Origin: Alphaproteobacteria bacterium
GTDB lineage: Bacteria; Pseudomonadota; Alphaproteobacteria; MPNO01; UBA830
DNA length: 64,000 bases
Assembly: GCA_964291215.2 (NCBI GenBank)
Contig: OZ219791.1
Span: 128,001-192,000, forward strand
Direction: 5' to 3'
Part shown: piece by piece, positions 21,241 through 46,876 of the stretch
Numbering within the stretch: the stretch's first letter is position 1
Layout: each line of letters begins with the position of its first letter
Program-made: the position numbers and the translations under genes
Notes under the pieces: generated by a model
Told to the model about the DNA's origin: nothing
Seen by the model: the letters and a program-made list of their open reading frames with translations, nothing else
Database searches by the model: none

Positions 21241-23439
21241 CCCCACTTCCAGTCTGAAGTGCAACACCCGGCCCTCATCGCAGTGAGGGCGTAGCCCGAA
21301 CGGAGATGAGGGCCGGGTGTTGCGCAAATCTTTCCCCTCTGCCCCTCTCGATTCCGCCTGGAAACAGCTTCAGTTCCTTCAACATCGAGCTTATGCAACG
21401 CCTTTGTCGGCTTCAAGCCACTATTCCGCCGTCGCGCGGCATGGACCCTGCTGCACGTTGCGGCTACGGAACGCAGATGGTCAGGGCGGTTTCACTTCAA
21501 GATTACCTCCGTCGGCGATCCCGGGACTTTCCGAGTGTTGAGCCGCACCTTCTGAACATCTTCGTTGCATGTCGCGCGAAAGTCCGTGCCCTTCGGGAAG
21601 TACTCCCGCACCAGGCCGTTGGTGTGCTCATTCAAGCCGCGCTCCCAGGAATGGAAAGGCGAAGAAGAAATCTGCGTCAAGTGCGACACGCCTGTGGTCT
21701 GCGAACTCCTTGCCGTTGTGATTGTGTGGACCAATAGCGCACCAGAGCCGAGCAGGCGGATCATACCAACCGTGTCTTTCTGTCCACCCAGCAAGGTGTA
21801 TTTCGTGGCACGAGCGACACGACAGCTCCACTGTGAGCTTTGCCGATGATGGCTCCCAGTCGCCGATCCGTTCCTTTGCCTCCGCAGGGCGCTCGGAAAT
21901 GTCCACCCGGCCGGAATGGCATTTGCCCTTCCAGTTCGGCTTCTTGCCGCGCCGCCGAAGCTTCTTCCACAAGGCGCCCCCAGCTCTCCGATCTTCATGA
22001 ATGCGATCATGGATCCGTTGCCGACCCACGGCCCTCCAGTCGAAAACGGCCGCTGCTCGGGGCCCTCCCGCAGCTTTTTCTGAGCTTCAGCCCGAGGCGT
22101 CAACCGCCAGGGTAACTGCTCACCCCCTGGTTCCGGCTTGATGTCGGGGTAGAGTAACGAACGGGTTTTCATGGAGATTTGACACTGCAGGCCGATTCGT
22201 TTAGTGGTGGTCATCGAGAACGATGGGGACCGCCAGTGGGCTACTTTGGATCGAAGGCGACGAGCGGACTGTGCCAGCTGCTTCCGGGGCTCCAGCCCCC
22301 GCATGATCTGTATGTGGAAATGCATCCGGGAGGCGGCGCGCTGATGAAGCGCAAGGCCGGGCGGGGGAGTACCGGAAGATGCCGCCGGGCGAGCGCCAGG
22401 CGATGCTCGCGGCGAGGCCGGGTGATGGCGACGGGCGGCGCGCGAGAAGTTCGAAGCGACCAAGGCGCTGCCGGCAAGGTGTCGGAAGAGGCCGTCATCC
22501 GCGTCCTCGTCATCCTGCTCGACATCCTCATCGTCGTCCTTCTGGAGAAGACCACGCACGAGCCGGAACTCCGGTCTGCCGCCGTCACAGACGGACAAGA
22601 GCGTGCCGGGAGCAAGGGCCCGAAGCCGAACCGGCAGATGGGCGACAACCTGCCATCGTCGAGGAGACGGTCGCGGCCTGCGACGCCTGCGGCGCCGACG
22701 GCCCCGTCGAGCGCCGCACGACATCGTGTTCGAGGTCGCGCCGCGTCGATGCCGAGGAATGCCCGAAGTGCAAGGCCCGGTTCCCCGACAACATCCCGTG
22801 CAGTACGGCATCCAGGCCCTCGTCCCTGCTGGTCGCCCGGATGCTGTCCCTGCGCCGTCGCGCTCGTGCAGGCGATATCAAGCTCTCCGAGGCCTCGGCC
22901 ATGCTTTCACGATGCGTCATGGGAGGAGGCCGCCGTGGCGCACCTCCTGCAACGCCCGATGTCGACGATTTCGGATCAACGGCAAGTGGCTCCATGTCGT
23001 CGGGACGTGCAAGTTCCCGCACCGCAAGCAAGAGATCGGCCCGTGCTACAAGGGCGTCCTGGGCCTCGTACATGGCAGTGTAGCCACCAGCGGCAGCGAC
23101 CTGCTGCGCGAACTGACCTTTGTCGTCGAGGCTGCCGCGCGACTGATGAAGAGCCTGCTCCCTGCCACAAGGTCAACAAGAGCGCATCCAGGACCCTGAA
23201 CGAGGCCGGGCGCTACCGCACCATCAGGGCGCCAGGGAACTGCCCGACATCCCGCCAAAAGGAAAACGCATCGCAAACGCGCACAACCTGCACGAACGTC
23301 TCGTGAAACACGAAAACCTGCGCTTCACAGACGACCATCGCGGTAGGGAACCGGGTTACCCCCCGCACAGAACCAGACGTGCGCTGTTCGCATCCGGCTC
23401 CTCCCCTGACGACAAGGCGCTGGTTTGGCCACGGATGCT

Positions 23440-24520
23440 GGCTCAGTGGGCAGCGGCGAGGGTGTCTATGTCCCCGGTGAAGTCCTTTTGGGAGCGTCGC
23501 CGAAGGGCACGCAGCTGTTTGCATTGGTGTATGAACTTCTGCAGGCTGCTTCCCGGAACGGCGTAGTAGCAGCCGTTGATAACTCACCACTTGGCCGTTT
23601 CGTGCCGGTTATCGTGCCACCGCCTGCGCAAGGCCTCCTTGATCCGCCGCAGGGTGCCCGTTTGCGAGATGGACCGACCCTGAACCTGCCTTTCCTCGTC
23701 TGTTCGCAGAAGTGCGTCATGCCGAGGAAGTCGAACGTCTTGCCCTGCCTACGCTTCCGGCGGTTCGCTCTGGCAAACCGACCGAACTCGATGATTTTCC
23801 GGGTGCAGTTCAAGTGGGCCAGTCTCTCCCCAAGGTCTCAGCGCCGCGCGTCGCTCAGATGCTGAAAGCCGCACACGAAGTCGTCCGCATAATGATCGTG
23901 TCGCCTCCAGCCATCCGCTTGCGCCAATGGTTCTGGAACCAGTCGTACGTAGTGCAGGTAGACGTTCGCAAGGCATGGCGCCGCCCCTTGCGGTGTTCCC
24001 TTGCCAGTCGGTCCCTTCCATGACGCCGGCGTCACTTGATGATCAGACCCCCCGATCCGTTTCCCGAGCATCGCGACCAGATGGTCGCGGTCGAGATTGT
24101 CGAAGAACCCACGGGCGTCAACGATCCAGTTGACCTTCCGCCGTTCCACCGTGACGGCGCATGATGCGCCCCGGCCGGAAGCCGTAACTAAACCCGAGGA
24201 ACTCCGTCTCGCGGCACCAGAATCACACCGCCCGCTGAAGAATCTTGTCCGAGGCAAGCGGTCGTTGCCCTCCATCCTCCTTGGGTATGTAAACCCCGGA
24301 GGCGCCCGGTACGCACCCCTGTGCACACGGGCGTGCAGGCAGTTCCACACCCTCCGCGTACGCTTGCCACACAACGCCCCGCCGCCGCGTCCTTCCTCAA
24401 GGAATGGAACGCATCGTGCAGAACGTCGACCGTCACGTGGTGGAGTAAAGACGCTCTTCCGGGTTCCTCTTCGCTACCTGCGTTCAGCCGCCTGTGACCC
24501 CCGCTTCTGCGCGCGGCGCG
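23440..24520 (-). pseudogene. ltrA: Group II intron reverse transcriptase/maturase, frameshifted (approximate bounds)
   Basis: LLHHVT, GTPQG..PCLANVYLHYV, YADDFV and TFDFLGMTH motifs spread across frames. Confidence 0.8.
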
Positions 24521-24826
24521 GGCTTTGGCCAACCGCATTGCCCTTCCCTCCAACAACTCCGCAGGCTCCGAAGAACCCTTGTTCGCCGCCTTCAGCGGTA
24601 CTATGGCCGAATCTGACTTCTCGTTCATCATCGGTTTACGGATTAGTTCCTTTCCTCTGCGGCCCCTCCACGACAGAGGGGCAAGACCTCCCAGGTCCCT
24701 GCTTCGGCCATGGTTCTCGGACCCCGCGGAGCCCCCGTTCGCCTCACCAACGCGGCTCGTGGGGTGTTGCCCACTCGGACGACCTCGGCACTCCGGTTTC
24801 AAAGCATCTCGTGGCTCAATAGCCTG

Positions 24827-25677
24827 GTCGGGTAGGCCACTGGCGCGCGCATCCTTAGGCGAAGGCTTTATCCGTCACCGCTCTTTCGATTGCGGGCGGG
24901 TTCGCAGAATCGCCATAGACCACGTTTCCAGCAGCCCCCCTAAAATTCCGTACGTCCGGTTTTCCCGGTTCAAGCATCAGGCACCCACTTGGAGTTCGGT
25001 GCGAAGCCTTCCCACGCCATAGTCAAGGCTGACCCAACCATACCCACGGCATCTCCGAGCGTTTGCTCCGTCCTTCGGCCTTGCAGTCTGTCGGTCGGTG
25101 CCGGTCTCTGCGTACCGGCTTGACCTGCCGCATAGGCTACCTGAGCCCTGAGGTCCTCGCTCGGGACGGGTTGTGTTGTCCCGCCCCTTAGGCGACCTCA
25201 TCCGCCAGTCAGGAGGACTCCGCGTCCTTTCCCGTCTCCCGGTTATAGACGCGGTCCTTGACGGGTCTCTTCATCCTGTCTGTCCTCCTCACCTTCCGGT
25301 CTTTCACTGCTGATCTGTCCCGAATTGCCGCCGTCTGTACCCCGGGGAACCCGATGCGTGTTCCTCAGTTCTTCCGCATCGACACTGGCCATCGGGTAGC
25401 AAGCAGACCCTTGGCGTTCACCGTCTATCCCACAAATCAGCTTCGTGTGGGTGGGGAATTTCGGGGCTTCGTCCAATCGTTCGCTTTCGCTACGGCCCTC
25501 CGGTTTGCTCGCCGCCCTGGCTGACCGGACCGGCTGGACACTGCGTTCCAGCCAGCCCACGACGGCTTTCTACGTCCCAGCTCGCTGATCCAGGGTCGCC
25601 CCTGAACCAATGCTACGGCGCCAAACTGAGAATTGCGGGACTTTCACCCGCAAGATCAGCAGCTAGACTCGCTGCAC
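24827..25677 (-). mobile_element. ORF-less group II intron (about 851 nt) nested in domain I of the RT intron
   Basis: 5' GTGCAG; domain V-like CCGGGAAAACCGGACGTACGGAATTTTAGGGGGG; long domain VI ending CCTACCCGAC; absent from the other RT intron copies. Confidence 0.8.
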
Positions 25678-25802
25678 GCCTGCCGCTCCCCAACGCTTCG
25701 CCTGGCGCCTCACGACGCATGGTTCACGGAGAAAGTGGTGGTTAGCCTCTCTTCCTACCGGGACTTGCACCCGGCCACATTCCACCAGTTTGCCTGGCGC
25801 AC

Positions 25803-27444
25803 ATCGCGGTAGGGAACCGGGTTACCCCGGTCCCCCCGCACAGAACCGGACGTGCGCTGTTCGCATCCGGCTCCTCCCCTGACGACAAGGCGCTGATTTG
25901 GCCACGGGTGGCGGATGCTGGCTCAGTGGGCAGCGGTGAGGGTGTCTACGTCCCCGGTGAAGTCCTTTTGGGAGCGTCGCCGAAGGGCACGCAGCTGTTT
26001 GCATTGGTGTATGAACTTCTGCAGGCTGCTTCCTGGAACGGCGTAGTAGCAGCCGTTGATAACTCACCACTTGGCCGTTTCGTGCCGGTTATCGTGCCAC
26101 CGCCTGCGCAAGGCCTCCTTGATCCGCCGCAGGGTGCCCGTTTGCGAGATGGACCGACCCTGAACCTGCCTTTCCTCGTCTGTTCGCAGAAGTGCGTCAT
26201 GCCGAGGAAGTCGAACGTCTTGCCCTGCTTCCGGCGGTTTGCTCTGGCAAACCGACCGAACTCGATGATTTTCCGGGTGCAGTTCAAGTGGGCCAGTCTC
26301 TCCCCAAGGTCTCGGAGAAAGCGCCGCGCGTCGCCCAGATGCTGAAAGCCGCACACGAAGTCATCCGCATAATGATCGTGTCGCCTCCAGCCATCCGCTT
26401 GCGCCAGTGGTTCTGGAACCAGTCGTACGTAGTGCAGGTAGACGTTCGCAAGGCATGGCGATACAATCGCCCCTTGCGGTGTTCCCTTGCCAGTCGGTCC
26501 CTTCCATGACGCCGGCGTTCAGCCACTTGATGATCAGACCCCCCGATCCGTTTCCCGAGCATCGCGACCAGGTGGTCGCGGTCGAGATTGTCGAAGAACC
26601 CACGGGCGTCAACGATCCAGTTGACCTTCCGCCGTTCCACCGTGACGGCATCGAGCGCATGATGCGCCCCGGCCGGAAGCCGTAACTAAACCCGAGGAAC
26701 TCCGTCTCGCGGCACCAGAATCACACCGCCCGCTGAAGAATCTTGTCCGAGGCAAGCGGTCGTTGCCCTCCATCCTCCTTGGGTATGTAAACCCCGGAGG
26801 CGCCCGGTACGCACCCCTGTGCACACGGGCGTGCAGGTCAACCAGTTCCACACCCTCCGCATACGCTTGCCACACAACGCCGTCCACGCCCGCCGCCGCG
26901 TCCTTCCTCAAGGAATGGAACGCATCGTGCAGAGCGTCGACCGTCACGTGGTGGAGTAAAGACGCTCTTCCGGGTTCCTCTTCGCTACCTGCGTTCAGCC
27001 ACCTGTGACCCCCGCTTCTGCGCGCGGCGCGGGCTTTGGCCAACCGCATTGCCCTTCCCTCCAGCAACTCCGCAGGCTCCGAAGAACCCTTGTTCGCCGC
27101 CTTCAACGGTACTATGGCCGAATCTGACTTCTCGTTCATCATCGGTTTACGGATTAGTTCCTTTCCTCTGCGGCCCCTCCACGACAGAGGGGCAAGACCT
27201 CCCAGGTCCCTGCTTCGGCCATGGTTCTCGGACCCCGCGGAGCCCCCGTTCGCCTCACCAACGCGGCTCGTTGCCTTCGGCCACGACCTCGGCACTCCGG
27301 TTTCAAAGCATCTCGTGGCTCAATAGCCTGCCGCTCCCCAACGCTTCGCCTGGCGCCTCACGACGCATGGTTCACGGAGAAAGTGGTGGTTAGCCTCTCT
27401 CGGGACTTGCACCCGGCAACATTCCACCAGTTTGCCTGGCGCAC
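25803..27444 (-). mobile_element. Group II intron (RT-encoding), copy 2
   Basis: Complete ends abutting copies 1 and 3; RT motifs. Confidence 0.9.
25925..27030 (-). pseudogene. ltrA: Group II intron RT/maturase, frameshifted (approximate bounds)
   Basis: KDAAAGVDGVVWQAY, KVNWIVDA-GFFD and IIEFGRFA motifs. Confidence 0.8.
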
Positions 27445-29105
27445 ATTGCGGTAGGGAACCGGGTTACCCCCCGCACAGAACCGGACGTGCGCTGTTCGCT
27501 CCTCCCCTGACGACAAGGCGCTGGTTTGGCCACGGGTGGCGGATGCTGGCTCAGTGGGCAGCGGCGAGGGTGTCTATGTCCCCGGTGAAGTCCTTTTGGG
27601 AGCGTCGCCGAAGGGCACGCAGCCGTTTGCATTGGTGTATGAACCCCTGCAGGGATTGACTGCTTCCCGGGACGGCGTAGTAGCAGCCGTTGATGACTCA
27701 CCACTTGGCCGTTTCGTGCCGGTTGTCGTGCCATCGCATGCGCAAGGCCCCCTTGATCCGCCGCAGGGTGCCCGTTTGCGAGACGGTTTGCGACCGACCC
27801 TGAACCTGCCTTTCCTCGTCTGTTCGCAGAAGTGCGTCATGCCGAGGAAGTCGAACGTCTTGCCCTGCTTCCGGCGGTTCGCTCTGGCAAACCGACCGAA
27901 CTCGATGATTGTCCGGGTGCAGTTCAAGTGGGCCAGCCTCTCCCCAAGGTCCCGGAGAAAGCGCTGCGCATCGCCCAGATGCTGAAAGCCGCACACGAAG
28001 TCGTCCGCATAATGATCGTGTCGCCTCCAGCCATCCGCTTGCGCCAGTGGTTCTGGAACCAGTCGCACGTAGTGCAGGTAAACGTTCGCGAGGCAGGGCG
28101 ATACAATCGCCCCCTGCGGTGTTCCCTTGCCCGTATCCGACCAGTCGGTCCCTTCCATGACGCCGGCGTTTAGCCACTTGATGATCAGACCCCCCGATCC
28201 GTTTCCCGAGCATCGCAATCAGGTGGTCGCGGTCGAGATTGTCGAAGAACCCGCGGGCGTCAACGATCCAGTTGACCTTCCGCCGTTCCACCGTGACGGC
28301 GTCGAGCGCGTGATGCGCCCCGGCCGGAAACCGTAACTAAACCCGAGGAACTCCGTTTCGTAGAGCGGCACCAGAATCACACTGCCCGCTGAAGAATTTT
28401 GTCCGAGGCAAGCGGTCGTTGCCCTCCATCCTCCTTGGGTATGTAAACCCTGGAGGCGCCCGGTACGCACCCCTGTGCACACGGGCGTGCAGGCAGTTCC
28501 ACACCCTCCGCATACGCTTGCCACACAACGCCCCGCCGCCGCGTCCTTCCTCAAGGAATGGAACGCGTCGTGCAGAGCGTCGACCGTCACGTGGTGGAGT
28601 AAAGACGCTCTTCCGGGTTCCTCTTCGCTACCTGCGTTCAGCCGCCTGTGACCCCCGCTTCTGCGCGCGGCGCGGGCCAACCGCATTGCCCTTGGCCTTC
28701 CCTCCAGCAACTCCGCAGGCTCCGAAGAACCCTTGTTCGCCGCCTTCAACGGTACTATGGCCGGATCTGACTTCTCGTTCATCATCGGTTTATGGAATAG
28801 TTCCTTTCCTCTGCGGCCCCTCCACGACAGAGGGGCGATTGAAAGACCTCCCAGGTCCCTGCTTCGGCCATGGTTCTCGGACCCCGCGGAGCCCCCCTCA
28901 CCAACGCGGCTCGCGGGGTGTTGCCCACTTGGACGACCTCGGCACTCCGGTTTCAAAGCATCTCGTGGCTCAATAGCCCGGCCTGCCGCTCCCCAACGCT
29001 TCGCCTGACGCCTCACGACGCATGGTTCACGGAGAAAGTGGTGGTTAGCCTCTCTTCCTGCCGGGACTTGCACCCGGCAACATTCCACCAGTTAGCCTGG
29101 CGCAC
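27445..29105 (-). mobile_element. Group II intron (RT-encoding), copy 3, adjacent to the 5' exon
   Basis: Complete ends; nearly identical to 43714-45375. Confidence 0.9.
27555..28670 (-). pseudogene. ltrA: Group II intron RT/maturase, frameshifted (approximate bounds)
   Basis: YETEFLGFSYGFRPGR, GTPQGAIVSPCLANVYLHYV and YADD motifs. Confidence 0.8.
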
Positions 29106-29676
29106 CCAACGTCAACTTCACCAACAATGCCGGAGAACAGAAGATCAGGATGGCAAAGGTCAAGGTGTCCGGATGCTTCCGCTCCACGCAAAAGCATGGT
29201 GCCGGGGCTCAAGCTACCTCACCTCCATGGCCGCACTCGGCTACAATCATCACGTCGCCACCCGGATCGCCCTCGACGGAAAAGTCGCAGACATCATCAA
29301 CGAGCACTACGACCAATCAGAACCCAACTAGGGGTGAGTAGATACCCGCCAGGAAACAGACGAGGCGGCCCTGCGGCGCGTTTCTGCCATCCTTTGCGCC
29401 TGCTTGTGACGGTAACCCCGTCCCCCGGTGTTGCGCTTGATCTCCCGGAAAATTGTTGATCGGCCCAGCTGCCGAGCAATCGCACCTTGTGAAAGACCGC
29501 TTTTCTGCCTCAATCTGGCATCGCTCTTCGTAGGTGACGGTAGCCTTTGGACATGAACAAGCTCCCTCCATCTTGTACAGGAACTCTCGCCGCTGCTGGA
29601 CAGCTCCGCAACATCATGCGTCTAAAAACACATGGCCACAGCCCATCATGTGTTGCACTTCACTATGGAACGGGGG

Positions 29677-33334: not shown

Positions 33335-34499
33335 CCCCCGTTCCATAGTGAAGTGCAACACATGATGGGCTGTGGCCATGTGTTTTTAGACGCATGATGT
33401 TGCGGAGCTGTCCAGCAGCGGCGAAAGTTCCTGTACAAGATGGAGGGAGCTTGTTCATGTCCAAAGGCTACCGTCACCTACGAAGAGCGATGCCAGATTG
33501 AGGCAGAAAAGCGGTCAAGGTACGATTGCTCGGCAGCTGGGCCGATCAACAATTTTCCGGGAGATCAAGCGCAACACCGGGGGACGGGGTTACCGTCACA
33601 AGCAGGCGCAAAGGATGGCAGAAACGCAGGGCAGCTTCGTCTGTTTCCTGGCGGTTGACGCCTCGGGTTGAAGCTCAGAAAAAGCTGCGGGAGGGCCCCG
33701 AGCAGCGGCCGTTTTCGACTGGAAGGCCGTGAACGGATCCATGATCGCCGAAGATCGGAGAGCTGGGGGCGTCTTGAAGCTTCGGCGGCGCGGCAAGAAG
33801 CCGAACTGGAAGGGCGGATGCCATTCTGGCCGGGTGGACATTTCCGAGCGCCCTGCGGAGGCAAAGGAACGGATCGGCGACTGGGAGCCATCATCGGCAA
33901 AGCTCACAGTGGAGCTGTCGTGTCGCTCGTGCCACGAAATACACCTTGCCGGGTGGACAGAAAGACCCGGTCGGTTCGGTCATGATGCTCGGCTCTGGTG
34001 CGCTATTGGTCCACACAATCACAACGGCAAAGAGTTCGCAGACCACAGGCGTGTCGCACTTGACGCAGATTTCTTCTTCGCCTTTCCATTCCTGGGAGCG
34101 CGGCTTGAATGAGCACACCAACGGCCTGGTGCGGGAGTACTTCCCGAAGGGCACGGACTTTCGCGCGACATGCAACGAAGATGTTCAGAAGGTGCGGCTC
34201 AACACTCGGAAAGTCCTGGGATCGCCGACGGAGGTAATCTTGAAGTGAAACCGCCCTGACCATCTGCGTTCCAAAGCCGCAACGTGCAGCAGGGTCCATG
34301 CCGCGCGACGGCGAAATAGTGGCTTGAAGCCGACAAAGGCGTTGCATAAGCTCGATGTTGAAGGAACTGAAGCTGTTCCCAGGCGGAATCGAGAGGGGCA
34401 GAGAGGAAAAATTTGCGCAACACCCGGCCCTCATCTCCGTTCGGGCTACGACCTCACTGCGATGAGGGCCGGGTGTTGCACTTCAGACTGGAAGTGGGG
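33335..34499 (+). mobile_element. IS30-family element, uninterrupted but frameshifted
   Basis: Both ends present; NEHTNGLVREYFPKG motif. Confidence 0.88.
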
Positions 34500-42238: not shown

Positions 42239-43713
42239 CCCCCGTTCCATAGTGAAGTGCAACACATGATGGGCTGTGGCCATGTGTTTTTAGACGCATG
42301 ATGTTGCGGAGCGGTAGCGGCGAGAGTTCCTGTACAAGATGAAGGGAGCTTGTTCATGTCCAAAGGCTACCGCCACCGTAACTGCTCACCCCCTGGCTCC
42401 GGCTTGATGTCGGGGTAGGCAACGAACGGGTTTTCGTGGAGATTTGACACTGCATGCCGATTCGCTTAGTGGTGGTCATCGAGAACGACGGGGACCGCCA
42501 GTGGGCTACTTTGGATCGAAGGCGACGAGCGGGCTGTGCCAGCTACTTCCGGGGCTCCAGCCTCCGCATGATCTGTATGTGGAAACGCATCTCGGAGGCG
42601 GCGCGCTGATGAAGCGCAAGGCCGGGTGATGGCGACGGTCAACGCGGCGCGCGAGGAGTTCGAAGCGGCCAAGACTGCGGCGCTGCCGGCAAGGTGCCGA
42701 AAGAGGCCGTGATCCGCGTCTTCGTCATCCTGCTCGACATCATCATCGTCGTCCTTCTGGAGAAGACCACGCACGAGCCGGAACTCCGGTCTGCCGCCGT
42801 CACAGACGGACAAGAGCGTGCCGGGAGCAACGGCCCGAAGCCGAACCGGCAGATGGGCGACAACCTGCGCAAGACCATCGTCGAGGAAACGGTCGCGGCC
42901 TGCGACGCCTGCGGCGCCGACGGCCCCGTCGATCGGGAGCGCCGCACGACATCGTGTTCGAGGTCGTCGAGCGCCGCGCCGAGATCAAGGAATGTCCGAA
43001 GTGCAAGGCCCGGGGCCGGTTCCCCGACAACATCCCGTGCAGTACGGCATCGGCATTCAGGTCCTCGTCATCAACCTGCTGGTCGCCCAGATGCTGTCCC
43101 TGCGCCGTCGCGTTCGTGCAGGCGATCTCCGGCATCAAGCTCTCCGAGGCAACCTGCCTCAGCTATGCTTTCACGATGCGCTCGTGTCATGGGAGGAGGC
43201 CGCCGTGGCGCACCTCCTGCAACGCCCAGCCCTGCATGTCGACGAGACCGGATTTCGGATCAACAGTAAGTGGCTCCATGTCGTGGGACCCTGACGTGCA
43301 AGTTCCCGCACCGCAAGCGCGGCCGGGAGGCAAGAGATCGGCATCATCCCGCGCTACAAGGGCGTCCTGGTCCACGACTGCTGGGCCTCGTACATGGGCT
43401 ATGACCAGTGTAGCCACCAGCTGTGCGGCAGCCACCTGCTGCGCGAACTGACCTTTGTCGTCGAGGCTACCGCTGGGCGCGGCTGATGAAGAGCCTGCTC
43501 CGCGAGGTCTGCCACAAGGTCAACAAGAGCGCATCCAAGACCCTGAACGACGCCGGGCGCAAGCGCTACCGCACCATCAGGGCGCCAGGGAACTGCCCGA
43601 TATCCTGCCGCCGCCAAAAGGAAAACGTGGACGCATAGCAAAGTCCGACGCGCACAACCTGCACGAACGTCTTGTGAAACACGAAAAGTCAGTCCTGCGC
43701 TTCACAGACGACC

Positions 43714-45375
43714 ATTGCGGTAGGGAACCGGGTTACCCCCCGCACAGAACCGGACGTGCGCTGTTCGCTCCTCCCCTGACGACAAGGCGCTGGTTTGGCC
43801 ACGGGTGGCGGATGCTGGCTCAGTGGGCAGCGGCGAGGGTGTCTATGTCCCCGGTGAAGTCCTTTTGGGAGCGTCGCCGAAGGGCACGCAGCCGTTTGCA
43901 TTGGTGTATGAACCCCTGCAGGGATTGACTGCTTCCCGGGACGGCGTAGTAGCAGCCGTTGATGACTCACCACTTGGCCGTTTCGTGCCGGTTGTCGTGC
44001 CATCGCATGCGCAAGGCCCCCTTGATCCGCCGCAGGGTGCCCGTTTGCGAGACGGTTTGCGACCGACCCTGAACCTGCCTTTCCTCGTCTGTTCGCAGAA
44101 GTGCGTCATGCCGAGGAAGTCGAACGTCTTGCCCTGCTTCCGGCGGTTCGCTCTGGCAAACCGACCGAACTCGATGATTGTCCGGGTGCAGTTCAAGTGG
44201 GCCAGCCTCTCCCCAAGGTCCCGGAGAAAGCGCTGCGCATCGCCCAGATGCTGAAAGCCGCACACGAAGTCGTCCGCATAATGATCGTGTCGCCTCCAGC
44301 CATCCGCTTGCGCCAGTGGTTCTGGAACCAGTCGCACGTAGTGCAGGTAAACGTTCGCGAGGCAGGGCGATACAATCGCCCCCTGCGGTGTTCCCTTGCC
44401 CGTATCCGACCAGTCGGTCCCTTCCATGACGCCGGCGTTTAGCCACTTGATGATCAGACCCCCCGATCCGTTTCCCGAGCATCGCAATCAGGTGGTCGCG
44501 GTCGAGATTGTCGAAGAACCCGCGGGCGTCAACGATCCAGTTGACCTTCCGCCGTTCCACCGTGACGGCGTCGAGCGCGTGATGCGCCCCGGCCGGAAAC
44601 CGTAACTAAACCCGAGGAACTCCGTTTCGTAGAGCGGCACCAGAATCACACTGCCCGCTGAAGAATCTTGTCCGAGGCAAGCGGTCGTTGCCCTCCATCC
44701 TCCTTGGGTATGTAAACCCTGGAGGCGCCCGGTACGCACCCCTGTGCACACGGGCGTGCAGGTCAACCAGTTCCACACCCTCCGCATACGCTTGCCACAC
44801 AACGCCGTCCACGCCCGCCGCCGCGTCCTTCCTCAAGGAATGGAACGCATCGTGCAGAGCGTCGACCGTCACGTGGTGGAGTAAAGACGCTCTTCCGGGT
44901 TCCTCTTCGCTACCTGCGTTCAGCCGCCTGTGACCCCCGCTTCTGCGCGCGGCGCGGGCCAACCGCATTGCCCTTCCCTCCAGCAACTCCGCAGGCTCCG
45001 AAGAACCCTTGTTCGCCGCCTTCAACGGTACTATGGCCGGATCTGACTTCTCGTTCATCATCGGTTTATGGAATAGTTCCTTTCCTCTGCGGCCCCTCCA
45101 CGACAGAGGGGCAAGACCTCCCAGGTCCCTGCTTCGGCCATGGTTCTCGGACCCCGCGGAGCCCCCCTCACCAACGCGGCTCGCGGGGTGTTGCCCACTT
45201 GGACGACCTCGGCACTCCGGTTTCAAAGCATCTCGTGGCTCAATAGCCCGGCCTGCCGCTCCCCAACGCTTCGCCTGACGCCTCACGACGCATGGTTCAC
45301 GGAGAAAGTGGTGGTTAGCCTCTCTTCCTGCCGGGACTTGCACCCGGCAACATTCCACCAGTTAGCCTGGCGCAC
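43714..45375 (-). mobile_element. Group II intron (RT-encoding), single copy
   Basis: GTGCG..AAT ends at the same tnpC site gacgacc|ccaacg. Confidence 0.9.
43825..44955 (-). pseudogene. ltrA: Group II intron RT/maturase, frameshifted (approximate bounds)
   Basis: AAGVDG, FLGFSYGFRPGR, GTPQG and YADD motifs. Confidence 0.8.
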
Positions 45376-46876
45376 CCAACGTCAACTTCACCAACAATGC
45401 CGGAGAACAGAAGATCAGGATGGCAAAGGTCAAGGTGTCCGGATGCTTCCGCTCCACGCAAAAGCATGGTGCCGGGGCTCAAGCTACCTCACCTCCATGG
45501 CCGCACTCGGCTACAATCATCACGTCGCCACCCGGATCGCCCTCGACGGAAAAGTCGCAGACATCATCAACGAGCACTACGACCAATCAGAACCCAACAA
45601 GGGGTGAGTAGATACCCGCCACCTACGAAAAGCGATGCCAGATTGAGGCAGAAAAGCGGTCTTTCACAAGGTGTGATTGCTCGGCAGCTGGGCCGATCAA
45701 CAATTTTCCGGGAGATCAGGCGCAACACCGGGGGACGGGGTTACCGTCACAAGCAGGCGCAAAGGATGGCAGAAACGCAGGGCAGCCTCGTCTGTTTCCT
45801 GGCGGTTGACGCCTCGGGTTGAAGCTCAGAAAAAGCTGCGGGAGGGCCCCGAGCAGCGGCCGTTTTCGACTGGAAGGCCGTGAACGGATCCATGATCGCT
45901 GAAGATCGGAGAGCCGGGGGCGTCTTGTGGAAGAAGCTTCGGCGGCGCGGCAAGAAGCCGAACTGGAAGGGCGGAGGCCATTCCGGCGGGTGGACATTTC
46001 CGAGCGCCCTGCGGAGGCAAAGGAACGGGTCGGCTACCGGGAGCCATTATCGGCAAAGCTCACAGTGGAGCTGTCGTGTCGCTCGTGCCACGAAATACGC
46101 CTTGCCGGGTGGACAGAAAGACACGGTCGGTTCGGTCATGATCCGCCTGCTCGGCTCTGGTGCGCTATTGGTCCACACAATCACAACGGCAAGGAGTTCG
46201 CAGACCACAGGCGTGTCGCACTTGACGCAGATTTCTTCTTCGCCTTTCCATTCCCGGGAGCGCGGCTTGAATGAGCACACCAACGGCCTGGTGCGGGAGT
46301 ACTTCCCGAAGGGCACGGACTTTCGCGCGACATGCAACGAAGATGTTCAGAAGGTGCGGCTCAACACTCGGAAAGTCCTAGGATCGCCGACGGAGGTAAT
46401 CTTGAAGTGAAACCGCCCTGACCATCTGCGTTCCGAAGCCGCAACGTGCAGCAGGGTCCATGCCGCGCTACGACGAAATAGTGGCTTGAAGCCGACAAAG
46501 GCGTTGCATAAGCTCGATGTTGAAGGAACTGAAGCTGTTCCCGGGCGGAATTGAGAGGGGCAGAGGGGGAAAATTTGCGCAGCATCCGGCCCTCATCTCC
46601 GTTCGGGCTACGCCCTCACTGCGATGAGGGCCTGATGTTGCACTTCAGACTGGAAGTGGGGACCAAAAAAATCAAACGATTTTATATTTTTCCGCAGGCA
46701 CGAATTAGCATGGGAGCGTCGTGGGAGAGCAGATTCGCCCCTGCGATTCGGCATTGTCAAACCTTCGAGTTTGAGGTTTTCCTGCGCGAAATCATACGCT
46801 TGTCCCCTACAGGCATCCCCAGGGCGCACACGCGTTCCCTGTGGCATAATCGAAAAAACGCGATTCCGCATCGTCG

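Follow-up and report, generated by a model that had tools for sequence, protein, structure and literature searches.

Why should three copies of one group II intron stand head to tail at a single site, with no nucleotide between them? The question is raised by a 64,000-nucleotide (nt) stretch of an alphaproteobacterial genome, hereafter the window (G000:C2:128001-192000; the assembly, G000, measures 6.15 Mb in two contigs and is 99% complete). On its minus strand, copy 3 (c3, 29105-27445), copy 2 (c2, 27444-25803), and copy 1 (c1, 25802-23337) of the intron follow one another without a spacer and interrupt an insertion sequence (IS) of the IS66 family. The triplet, in antisense in the IS66 transposase gene, likely arose from successive homing of new copies in front of earlier ones, the landing site being rebuilt each time. 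An earlier note on this DNA had described the split IS66 site and seamless junctions at 25802/25803 and 27444/27445; the split was verified, and both junctions lie at exactly these coordinates.

The host IS66 (22112-29345) is bounded by an identical 8-bp target-site duplication, CCGCCAGG, at 22104-22111 (left, plus strand) and 29346-29353 (right). Its left part (22112-23336, plus strand) carries a decayed transposase frame and forms the 3' exon on the intron strand, where the intron-binding site IBS3 is the G at 23336 of the minus strand. Its right part (29106-29345, plus strand) forms the 5' exon, with IBS1 at about 29106-29112 and IBS2 at 29115-29119, read on the minus strand. The element was assigned to IS66 from the DDE_Tnp_IS66 domain (PF03050) of sister copies, the terminal inverted repeats, and the 8-bp duplication; an 80-amino-acid (aa) piece of the window copy, given in another frame, had no Pfam match. 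In sister copies, the PF03050 matches (e.g., at C2:133387-133569 and C2:171178-171471) and the intron are on opposite strands, and the transposase frame continues through the empty site in the plus-strand direction. The intron is therefore in antisense orientation relative to the transposase, so that exon ligation would not restore the transposase messenger RNA. A lone copy of the intron, c4 (43714-45375, minus strand), lies within a second IS66 (42378-45615) with an 8-bp duplication of its own.

Reuse of an occupied homing site and order of the copies

The exon-binding sites EBS1, EBS2, and EBS3 were placed by aligning domain I with eight plasmid homologues (the 3' ends of L010 and L011 were taken in the same register). 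The EBS1–IBS1, EBS2–IBS2, and single-base EBS3–IBS3 pairings were supported by covariation in these homologues, and the EBS3 column paired with the first 3'-exon base in all eight, with all four bases represented. Domain I pieces folded alone were uninformative (z −1.05). EBS1 and EBS2 match the 5' exon; they are located at 28932-28927 and 28959-28955 in c3 and at 24778-24773 and 24805-24801 in c1, while EBS1 is deleted in c2. EBS3 is C in c3 (28879), c2 (27230), and c1 (24719), and in 51 of the 52 near-complete genome copies compared (53 paired copies less the interrupted and mispaired C1-702423); the single copy with U precedes A in a different target. The earlier note had made its proposal depend on an EBS3 able to pair with G, and the C found here is a Watson–Crick partner for the first G of both the exon and the intron. 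For IBS1, IBS2, and IBS3, an occupied site is therefore equivalent to an empty one, and its positions +4, +5, and +7 are also those of the common exon.

Each insertion would keep the binding sites of the 5' exon and supply a new G, the first base of the intron. This G is predicted to pair with the cytosine of EBS3, so that later copies would home ahead of earlier ones. Homing would have occurred before the copies lost their integrity, into the lagging-strand template at replication forks; deletions of 5–7 nt would then have inactivated the copies, and DNA-level exchange among the repeats would have reshuffled them. Stacking downstream of a resident copy was ruled out: the intron 3' end is unlike IBS1 and has no match to EBS1, and arrays can thus grow only upstream.

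In a genome-wide census, 190 target sites held zero, one, two, or three copies in 144, 41, 3, and 2 cases, for which the Poisson expectation is 143.8, 40.1, 5.6, and 0.6; the figures are rough, as the target sites are not fully independent. Eight seamless intron–intron joints were found at six genome loci, the sixth array being without its 5' exon, and a search for the joint of the window intron in 40 relatives found none. The intron sense was on the G-rich strand at 40 of 46 occupied sites versus 50 of 144 empty ones (Fisher p 2.6e-10), and each of the six arrays has the orientation favoured for homing. We read this bias as insertion into the lagging-strand template, which has been described for endonuclease-less introns (PMC4615759). 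The proposal of the earlier note that an occupied site remains a target was supported by the pairing of the EBS3 C with both exon G and intron G, by the near-Poisson occupancy, and by joints that unite different subfamilies.

Subfamilies were defined from a table of single-nucleotide polymorphisms and from distances; c3 belongs to T1, c2 to A2 (with a single T-type base close to its 5' end), and c1 to A3. A T-type 3' end occurs at four joints, and in each of them the next copy starts as A-type; none of the seven lone copies with a T-type end combines the two. These joints bear on whether the array could have formed without a second homing, from intron circles or concatemers (a complementary DNA circle recombining into a resident copy) or by replication slippage. 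Recombination among copies is evident from the mosaic copy C2+1323325, common joint sequences, and the common flank of c3 and c4, and the copies of a triplet at C2:1320039 are near-identical, as a circle or slip would have them. However, a circle or a slip joins the ends of one molecule, and re-homing fits the mixed-type joints better; moreover, array members are not reciprocal mosaics, and the uniform homing-favoured orientation of the six arrays also speaks against such an origin, which we consider unlikely.

An assembly artefact, in which a repeat was unrolled into tandem copies, was also weighed. The genome holds over 50 intron copies, and no public record spans the array: the public runs comprise three DNA-type runs of one study (no RNA run is listed), and no array-spanning contig was found in the three. 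Pieces of 57–59 nt in X1 and X2 cross the c2|c1 joint with 0–2 mismatches; having 26–33 letters per side, and fewer than 31 on one of the sides, they were not counted as bridging. The runs probably derive from relatives of the source and not from the source itself, as they differ from the window at many positions. Against an artefact, the copies belong to different subfamilies and differ by 1.3–3% substitutions and 15–23 deletions, the target duplications match across the array, and copy numbers follow a biological strand bias, which makes this explanation very improbable.

Successive homing at the 5' exon would leave the youngest copy upstream, and the earlier note had accordingly proposed a time-ordered stack. 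Within subfamilies, divergence and the number of deletions relative to a 1873-nt union reference rise together (0.24%/29, 0.28%/29, 0.46%/33, and 0.78%/56). From upstream to downstream, the deletions numbered 33/34/39 in the window, 39/36, 30/54, 35/35/35, and 48/58 in four other arrays, and 2 versus 6 in the surviving part of the sixth. The upstream copy is thus less eroded in four of the six arrays, in agreement with the proposed order, whereas one array is tied and one is slightly reversed. Younger subfamilies also lie mostly upstream.

Several observations count against successive homing or blur its record. The strand assignment was made from the guanine–cytosine skew and not from a mapped origin. 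When only sites in the favoured orientation are considered, 5 multi-copy sites compare with 10.6 expected (p 0.048); re-homing may proceed at about half the rate, occupied sites being poorer targets, or arrays may collapse. The EBS1–IBS1 pairing requires a one-base bulge at −5, which would correspond to a variable third codon position, and at two joints from GTDB genomes (L106 and L135) the upstream intron has G at EBS3, so that pairing with G is not strictly needed. The deletion counts of c3 and c2 differ by just one, a doublet with 39 deletions upstream and 36 downstream runs the other way, and a triplet is tied. Finally, the sequence of the c3|c2 joint is found two more times, at C2:1320039, and the c2|c1 joint mirrors that of a doublet 25 kb away; such recurring joints are not independent, which leaves about five origins.

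How strictly the triplet itself records time was judged from c3 and c4. Three homings at this locus, with c3 arriving last from the lone copy c4 and without any later DNA-level exchange, would fit the youngest-first order of subfamilies T1, A2, and A3 and of deletions 33, 34, and 39. The earlier note had taken the near-identity of c3 and c4 as a sign of the newest arrival; the near-identity was confirmed (2 substitutions at 1388 compared positions), but the interpretation did not hold. The two copies, of the same subfamily, have most deletions and a 240-bp flank in common, with 239 of the 240 flank bases identical, including an exon variant found at just these 2 of the 190 sites. Their deletion states differ at 3 of 60 sites, where about 14 differences are expected for independent young copies. 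Both also have a dead domain V, and as this domain is partly missing, neither could have homed in that form. In addition, c2 begins with the same hybrid sequence as the copies at C2:1321682 and C2:1323325. A strict stack without exchange is accordingly improbable, and the likeness of c3 and c4 is best read, on the sequence comparison, as DNA-level copying. Successive homing in front of earlier copies leaves two histories about evenly balanced: either all three copies homed here, or two doublets that already existed were joined.

Present state of the copies and the inner intron

The earlier note had spoken of three full intron copies. None of the three is full, as each carries 33–39 small deletions relative to the union reference (c3 33, c2 34, and c1 39), of which 13 in c3, 13 in c2, and 18 in c1 shift the frame of the reverse transcriptase (RT) open reading frame (ORF). 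The RT ORF is frameshifted in all window copies, in which the YADD motif is present (23891-23880 in c1). Substitutions were counted at 38 of 1285 compared positions between c3 and c2, 39 of 1252 between c3 and c1, and 16 of 1259 between c2 and c1; the statement that the copies are not one perfect duplication was thus correct, with much of the difference being indels. The 5' arm of domain V is without 7 nt in c3, which has no Rfam domain V match, and c4 likewise lacks 7 nt of the domain. A domain V hairpin with the AGC triad scored 43.4 bits in c2 and 37.9 bits in c1, the latter below the gathering score of 40. Domains V and VI are intact in c2, which has lost EBS1, whereas in c1 (domain V at about 23401-23371, branch A at 23344) the EBS1 hairpin has lost its 3' arm and domain VI is incomplete.

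The same erosion was observed throughout the genome. The 52 copies carry 2200 deletions of 105 kinds at recurrent positions, 1830 of them of 5–7 nt; EBS1 is lost in 42 copies, 37 are without the domain V 5' arm, and the EBS1 hairpin, domain V, and domain VI are retained together in a single copy. No intact RT of the intron family was found among genome ORFs of at least 150 aa (best 30 hits). The array might nevertheless be imagined as working, with the copies spliced out one after another (last in, first out) or all together as a composite intron. This would be possible for intact copies, since the exit of c3 gives IBS1 and IBS2 back to c2, and c2 retains domains V and VI. However, c3 would have to splice first and is without the 5' arm of domain V, c2 is without EBS1, and the intron is antisense to the transposase. 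With an essential element missing from each copy and no intact family RT found, the sequential splicing envisaged by the earlier note is not sustained for the present-day array, and a working array is extremely improbable. Judged from their sequences, the three copies have probably all lost the ability to splice, and the array is best regarded as a fossil and not as a working ratchet-splicing unit.

The interval 23337-29105, given in the earlier note as three introns, holds four, as c1 conceals an inner one. The length of c1 (2466 nt) exceeds that of the other copies owing to an 851-nt ORF-less group II intron inserted after its nt 125 (24827-25677, minus strand), and the two form a twintron. 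The inner intron has its own intron ends and no target duplication, and its EBS1 and EBS2 vary with the target between variants B1 and B2. There are 12 or more copies in the genome, targeting the outer intron, the inner intron's own domain IV, and sites elsewhere. Its relatives, which score 63.6–64.2 bits on RF02003, were found in G195, G314, and the metagenome loci L216–L221, and a search of plasmids gave no match. The inner copy in c1 lacks 7 nt of domain V, and the same 7 nt, present in the relatives, are missing from all 12 copies that span the entire domain V region, which suggests that these copies would be unable to splice. Nesting is deeper in a second array, the doublet G000:C2:128779-123815, whose 5' part occupies 1-779 of the window (minus strand) and consists of the outer intron start and an inner ORF-less intron (654-16); in the upstream copy, a second inner intron is nested in the first from position 15, giving three levels. 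Six nucleotides just past the insertion point of the inner intron are absent at four loci (25677/24826 in the window, C2:126933, C2:94960, and C1:1655922). This loss is an allele also present in uninterrupted copies, and it reflects either insertion into targets that had lost these nucleotides beforehand or repeated deletion without homology on the left side.

Other interrupted or related copies were noted in the genome. A third group II intron (1919 nt) is nested in an outer-intron copy at G000:C1:94852-96771, and at G000:C1:1655625 an outer-intron copy with U at EBS3 lies inside another copy of the family and is itself split by an IS. Non-IS66 targets whose 3' exons begin with A (G000:C2:331134, 757594, 3116396, 3330825, and others) are occupied by a sister intron family of about 81% identity. 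In the window, both intron-bearing IS66 copies (22104-29353 and 42370-45623) sit inside repeats of a further family, which has matches at 33335-34499 and 45616-46661, and 9406-14554 holds a ribosomal RNA operon with transfer RNA genes, the only copy in the assembly and intact by Rfam score.

Deletions of 5–7 nt across the repeats

The deletion signature, an incidental observation, is stranger than the triplet itself. Across all repeats of the genome, 2382 of 4223 distinct indels were 5–7 nt long, with a sharp edge (69 indels of 4 nt and 507 of 5 nt) and echoes at 11–13 and 18 nt. Within the intron, 29 of 63 recurrent deletion sites were deleted in members of all four subfamilies compared. One copy (G000:C2:3402931-3404765, L001) carries only 6 deletions, while near-identical sisters, 1–3 substitutions away, carry 32–35. 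As the 12 inner introns lack the same 7 nt although they lie at different matched homing sites, this loss followed insertion. A young IS66 family of the genome is, unlike the eroded one, untouched, its 12 copies (G000:C1:331901-333600 and 11 other loci) having 0–3 gap bases and open 463-aa frames. The signature was also found in another genome of the genus (G002), at whose IS66 loci 103 of 115 indels were 5–7 nt (30 of 34 matches fetched). An assembler artefact is disfavoured by the contigs of the three public runs, in which 6-nt deletion alleles occur alongside intact ones. When 190 kb of single-copy DNA were compared with G001, 15 of 87 indels were 5–7 nt, all 15 missing in G000; the density of these deletions was about 0.08 per kb in single-copy DNA versus about 22 per kb in the intron.

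Several causes were considered. A mismatch endonuclease was rejected, as 25 of 57 deleted segments were polymorphic versus a control mean of 21.7 and no NucS match was found, and end-joining by Ku was rejected, with no Ku match in the 99% complete genome. No restriction-type motif at a fixed distance was detected within 40 nt, where only a weak local TC/RTCGAY bias was seen, and hairpin contexts were not enriched. Microhomology of at least 3 nt was enriched (776 versus 176 of 2382) and was absent altogether in 621 events. MutS, which ignores loops of 5 nt or more, is present in the genome. Our best guess is a lineage-wide source of 5–7-nt deletions combined with deletion-biased loop repair when repeat copies pair; alternatively, a genome-wide deletion bias may be filtered by selection. 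We tentatively raise the possibility, which we regard as doubtful, of a process that erodes repeats by removing 5–7-nt pieces at fixed positions after insertion, far outpacing substitutions (about 27 deletions per 1–3 substitutions) and reaching fixation in every copy, as with the 7 nt of domain V lost from 12 of 12 inner introns. Literature searches for such a signature found nothing.

Intron class and known tandem systems

The intron has the ends of subgroup IIB (5' GUGYG, 3' AY, and a bulged A in domain VI). In the genomic copy with the least erosion, the encoded protein has an RVT_1 domain (E 2.3e-23), and this RT is approximately 58–64% identical to plasmid RT/maturases. Identity was 49% (233 bits) to a disrupted RT on pRmeGR4b, which by elimination was taken as S.me.I4, described as a class E intron in PMC5894124. 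It was 34% (147 bits) to a 419-aa class D RT, taken as RmInt1, and 31% to a listed class D protein. The ORF stops just before domain V, without an endonuclease domain, and the plasmid homologues are named RT/maturase (a frame of 497 aa was compared for L007). The intron is thus likely of bacterial class E, lacking an endonuclease, as judged from one class E comparator.

Tandem products have been published for two group II introns. In a 2014 plasmid assay of RmInt2, a class D intron of Sinorhizobium meliloti, a head-to-tail product was ascribed to pairing of the EBS3 U with the intron's first G (PMC4615759). Like RmInt2, the present intron is an endonuclease-less IIB intron with IS-element targets, a lagging-strand bias, and a second copy head to tail. 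Unlike the U wobble in that assay, the EBS3 C forms a Watson–Crick pair, the same as at the empty site, and the arrays are natural, up to three copies long, and of mixed subfamilies. For EcKTE56.groEL (IIB1), tandem integration at the junction of the 5' exon and the first copy was reported in 2025 for 4.2% of events with the full-length intron and was likewise ascribed to an EBS3 U pairing with the intron's first G (PMC12584367). The seamless joint, an EBS3 able to pair with G, and the absence of a duplication at the joint are common to both, whereas EcKTE56.groEL is a CL1-type intron in a housekeeping gene, pairing by a U–G wobble under over-expression, and the present array is class E-like, antisense in IS66, and fossil.

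The twintron in c1 resembles the intron nests of Methanosarcina (PMC4424553) and Tr.e.I7/I8 of Trichodesmium (PMC4649490), in that a group II intron holds another, and nests two deep occur elsewhere in this genome. In contrast to what is described there, the inner intron is ORF-less, both partners are decayed, and splicing is not required by any host gene. In fungal mitochondria, side-by-side twintrons and trintrons, for which ratchet splicing was proposed, also have no exon between modules, but they are organellar group I introns in expressed genes (PMC8393795). Beyond RmInt2 and EcKTE56.groEL, we found no natural bacterial group II arrays in print in a search outside which most subscription papers lay.

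Natural joints were found in other genomes. An exact 19-nt joint pattern gave 113 hits in GTDB; 41 loci passed a domain V filter, and L091 and L157 were dropped on inspection, leaving 39 true intron–intron joints. Where EBS3 was readable in same-intron arrays, it was C or U in 12 of 12 (several representing one intron in related genomes); two arrays were unreadable. Class E-like joints with the same 19-nt pattern include L083, L084 (an ORF-less triplet), L095, L103, L120, L134, and others. The pairs at L083, L095, L103, L120, L134, and L156 are 99–100% identical over 1.9–2.0 kb, unlike the eroded and mixed copies of G000. One intron with an EBS3 C forms doublets and a triplet, both full-length and ORF-deleted, in several Acidobacteriota genomes (L084, L095, L100, L138, and L156).

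The mechanism is therefore already published and widespread in genomes, and the window array is a fossil example of it. Tandem re-homing was known earlier as a side product in two laboratory systems, and the natural census of 190 sites is a useful confirmation and no new mechanism: with C at EBS3, an occupied site is hardly or not at all protected from further insertion, new copies are added at the 5' exon, and recombination blurs their order. If the repeat-eroding process were real, it would be an undescribed means by which a bacterium could inactivate its transposons and introns genome-wide, and a bacterial counterpart of repeat-induced mutation. The intron arrays would then be dated stacks recording its rate, and the similarity of repeat copies in such genomes would be no measure of when mobility occurred.

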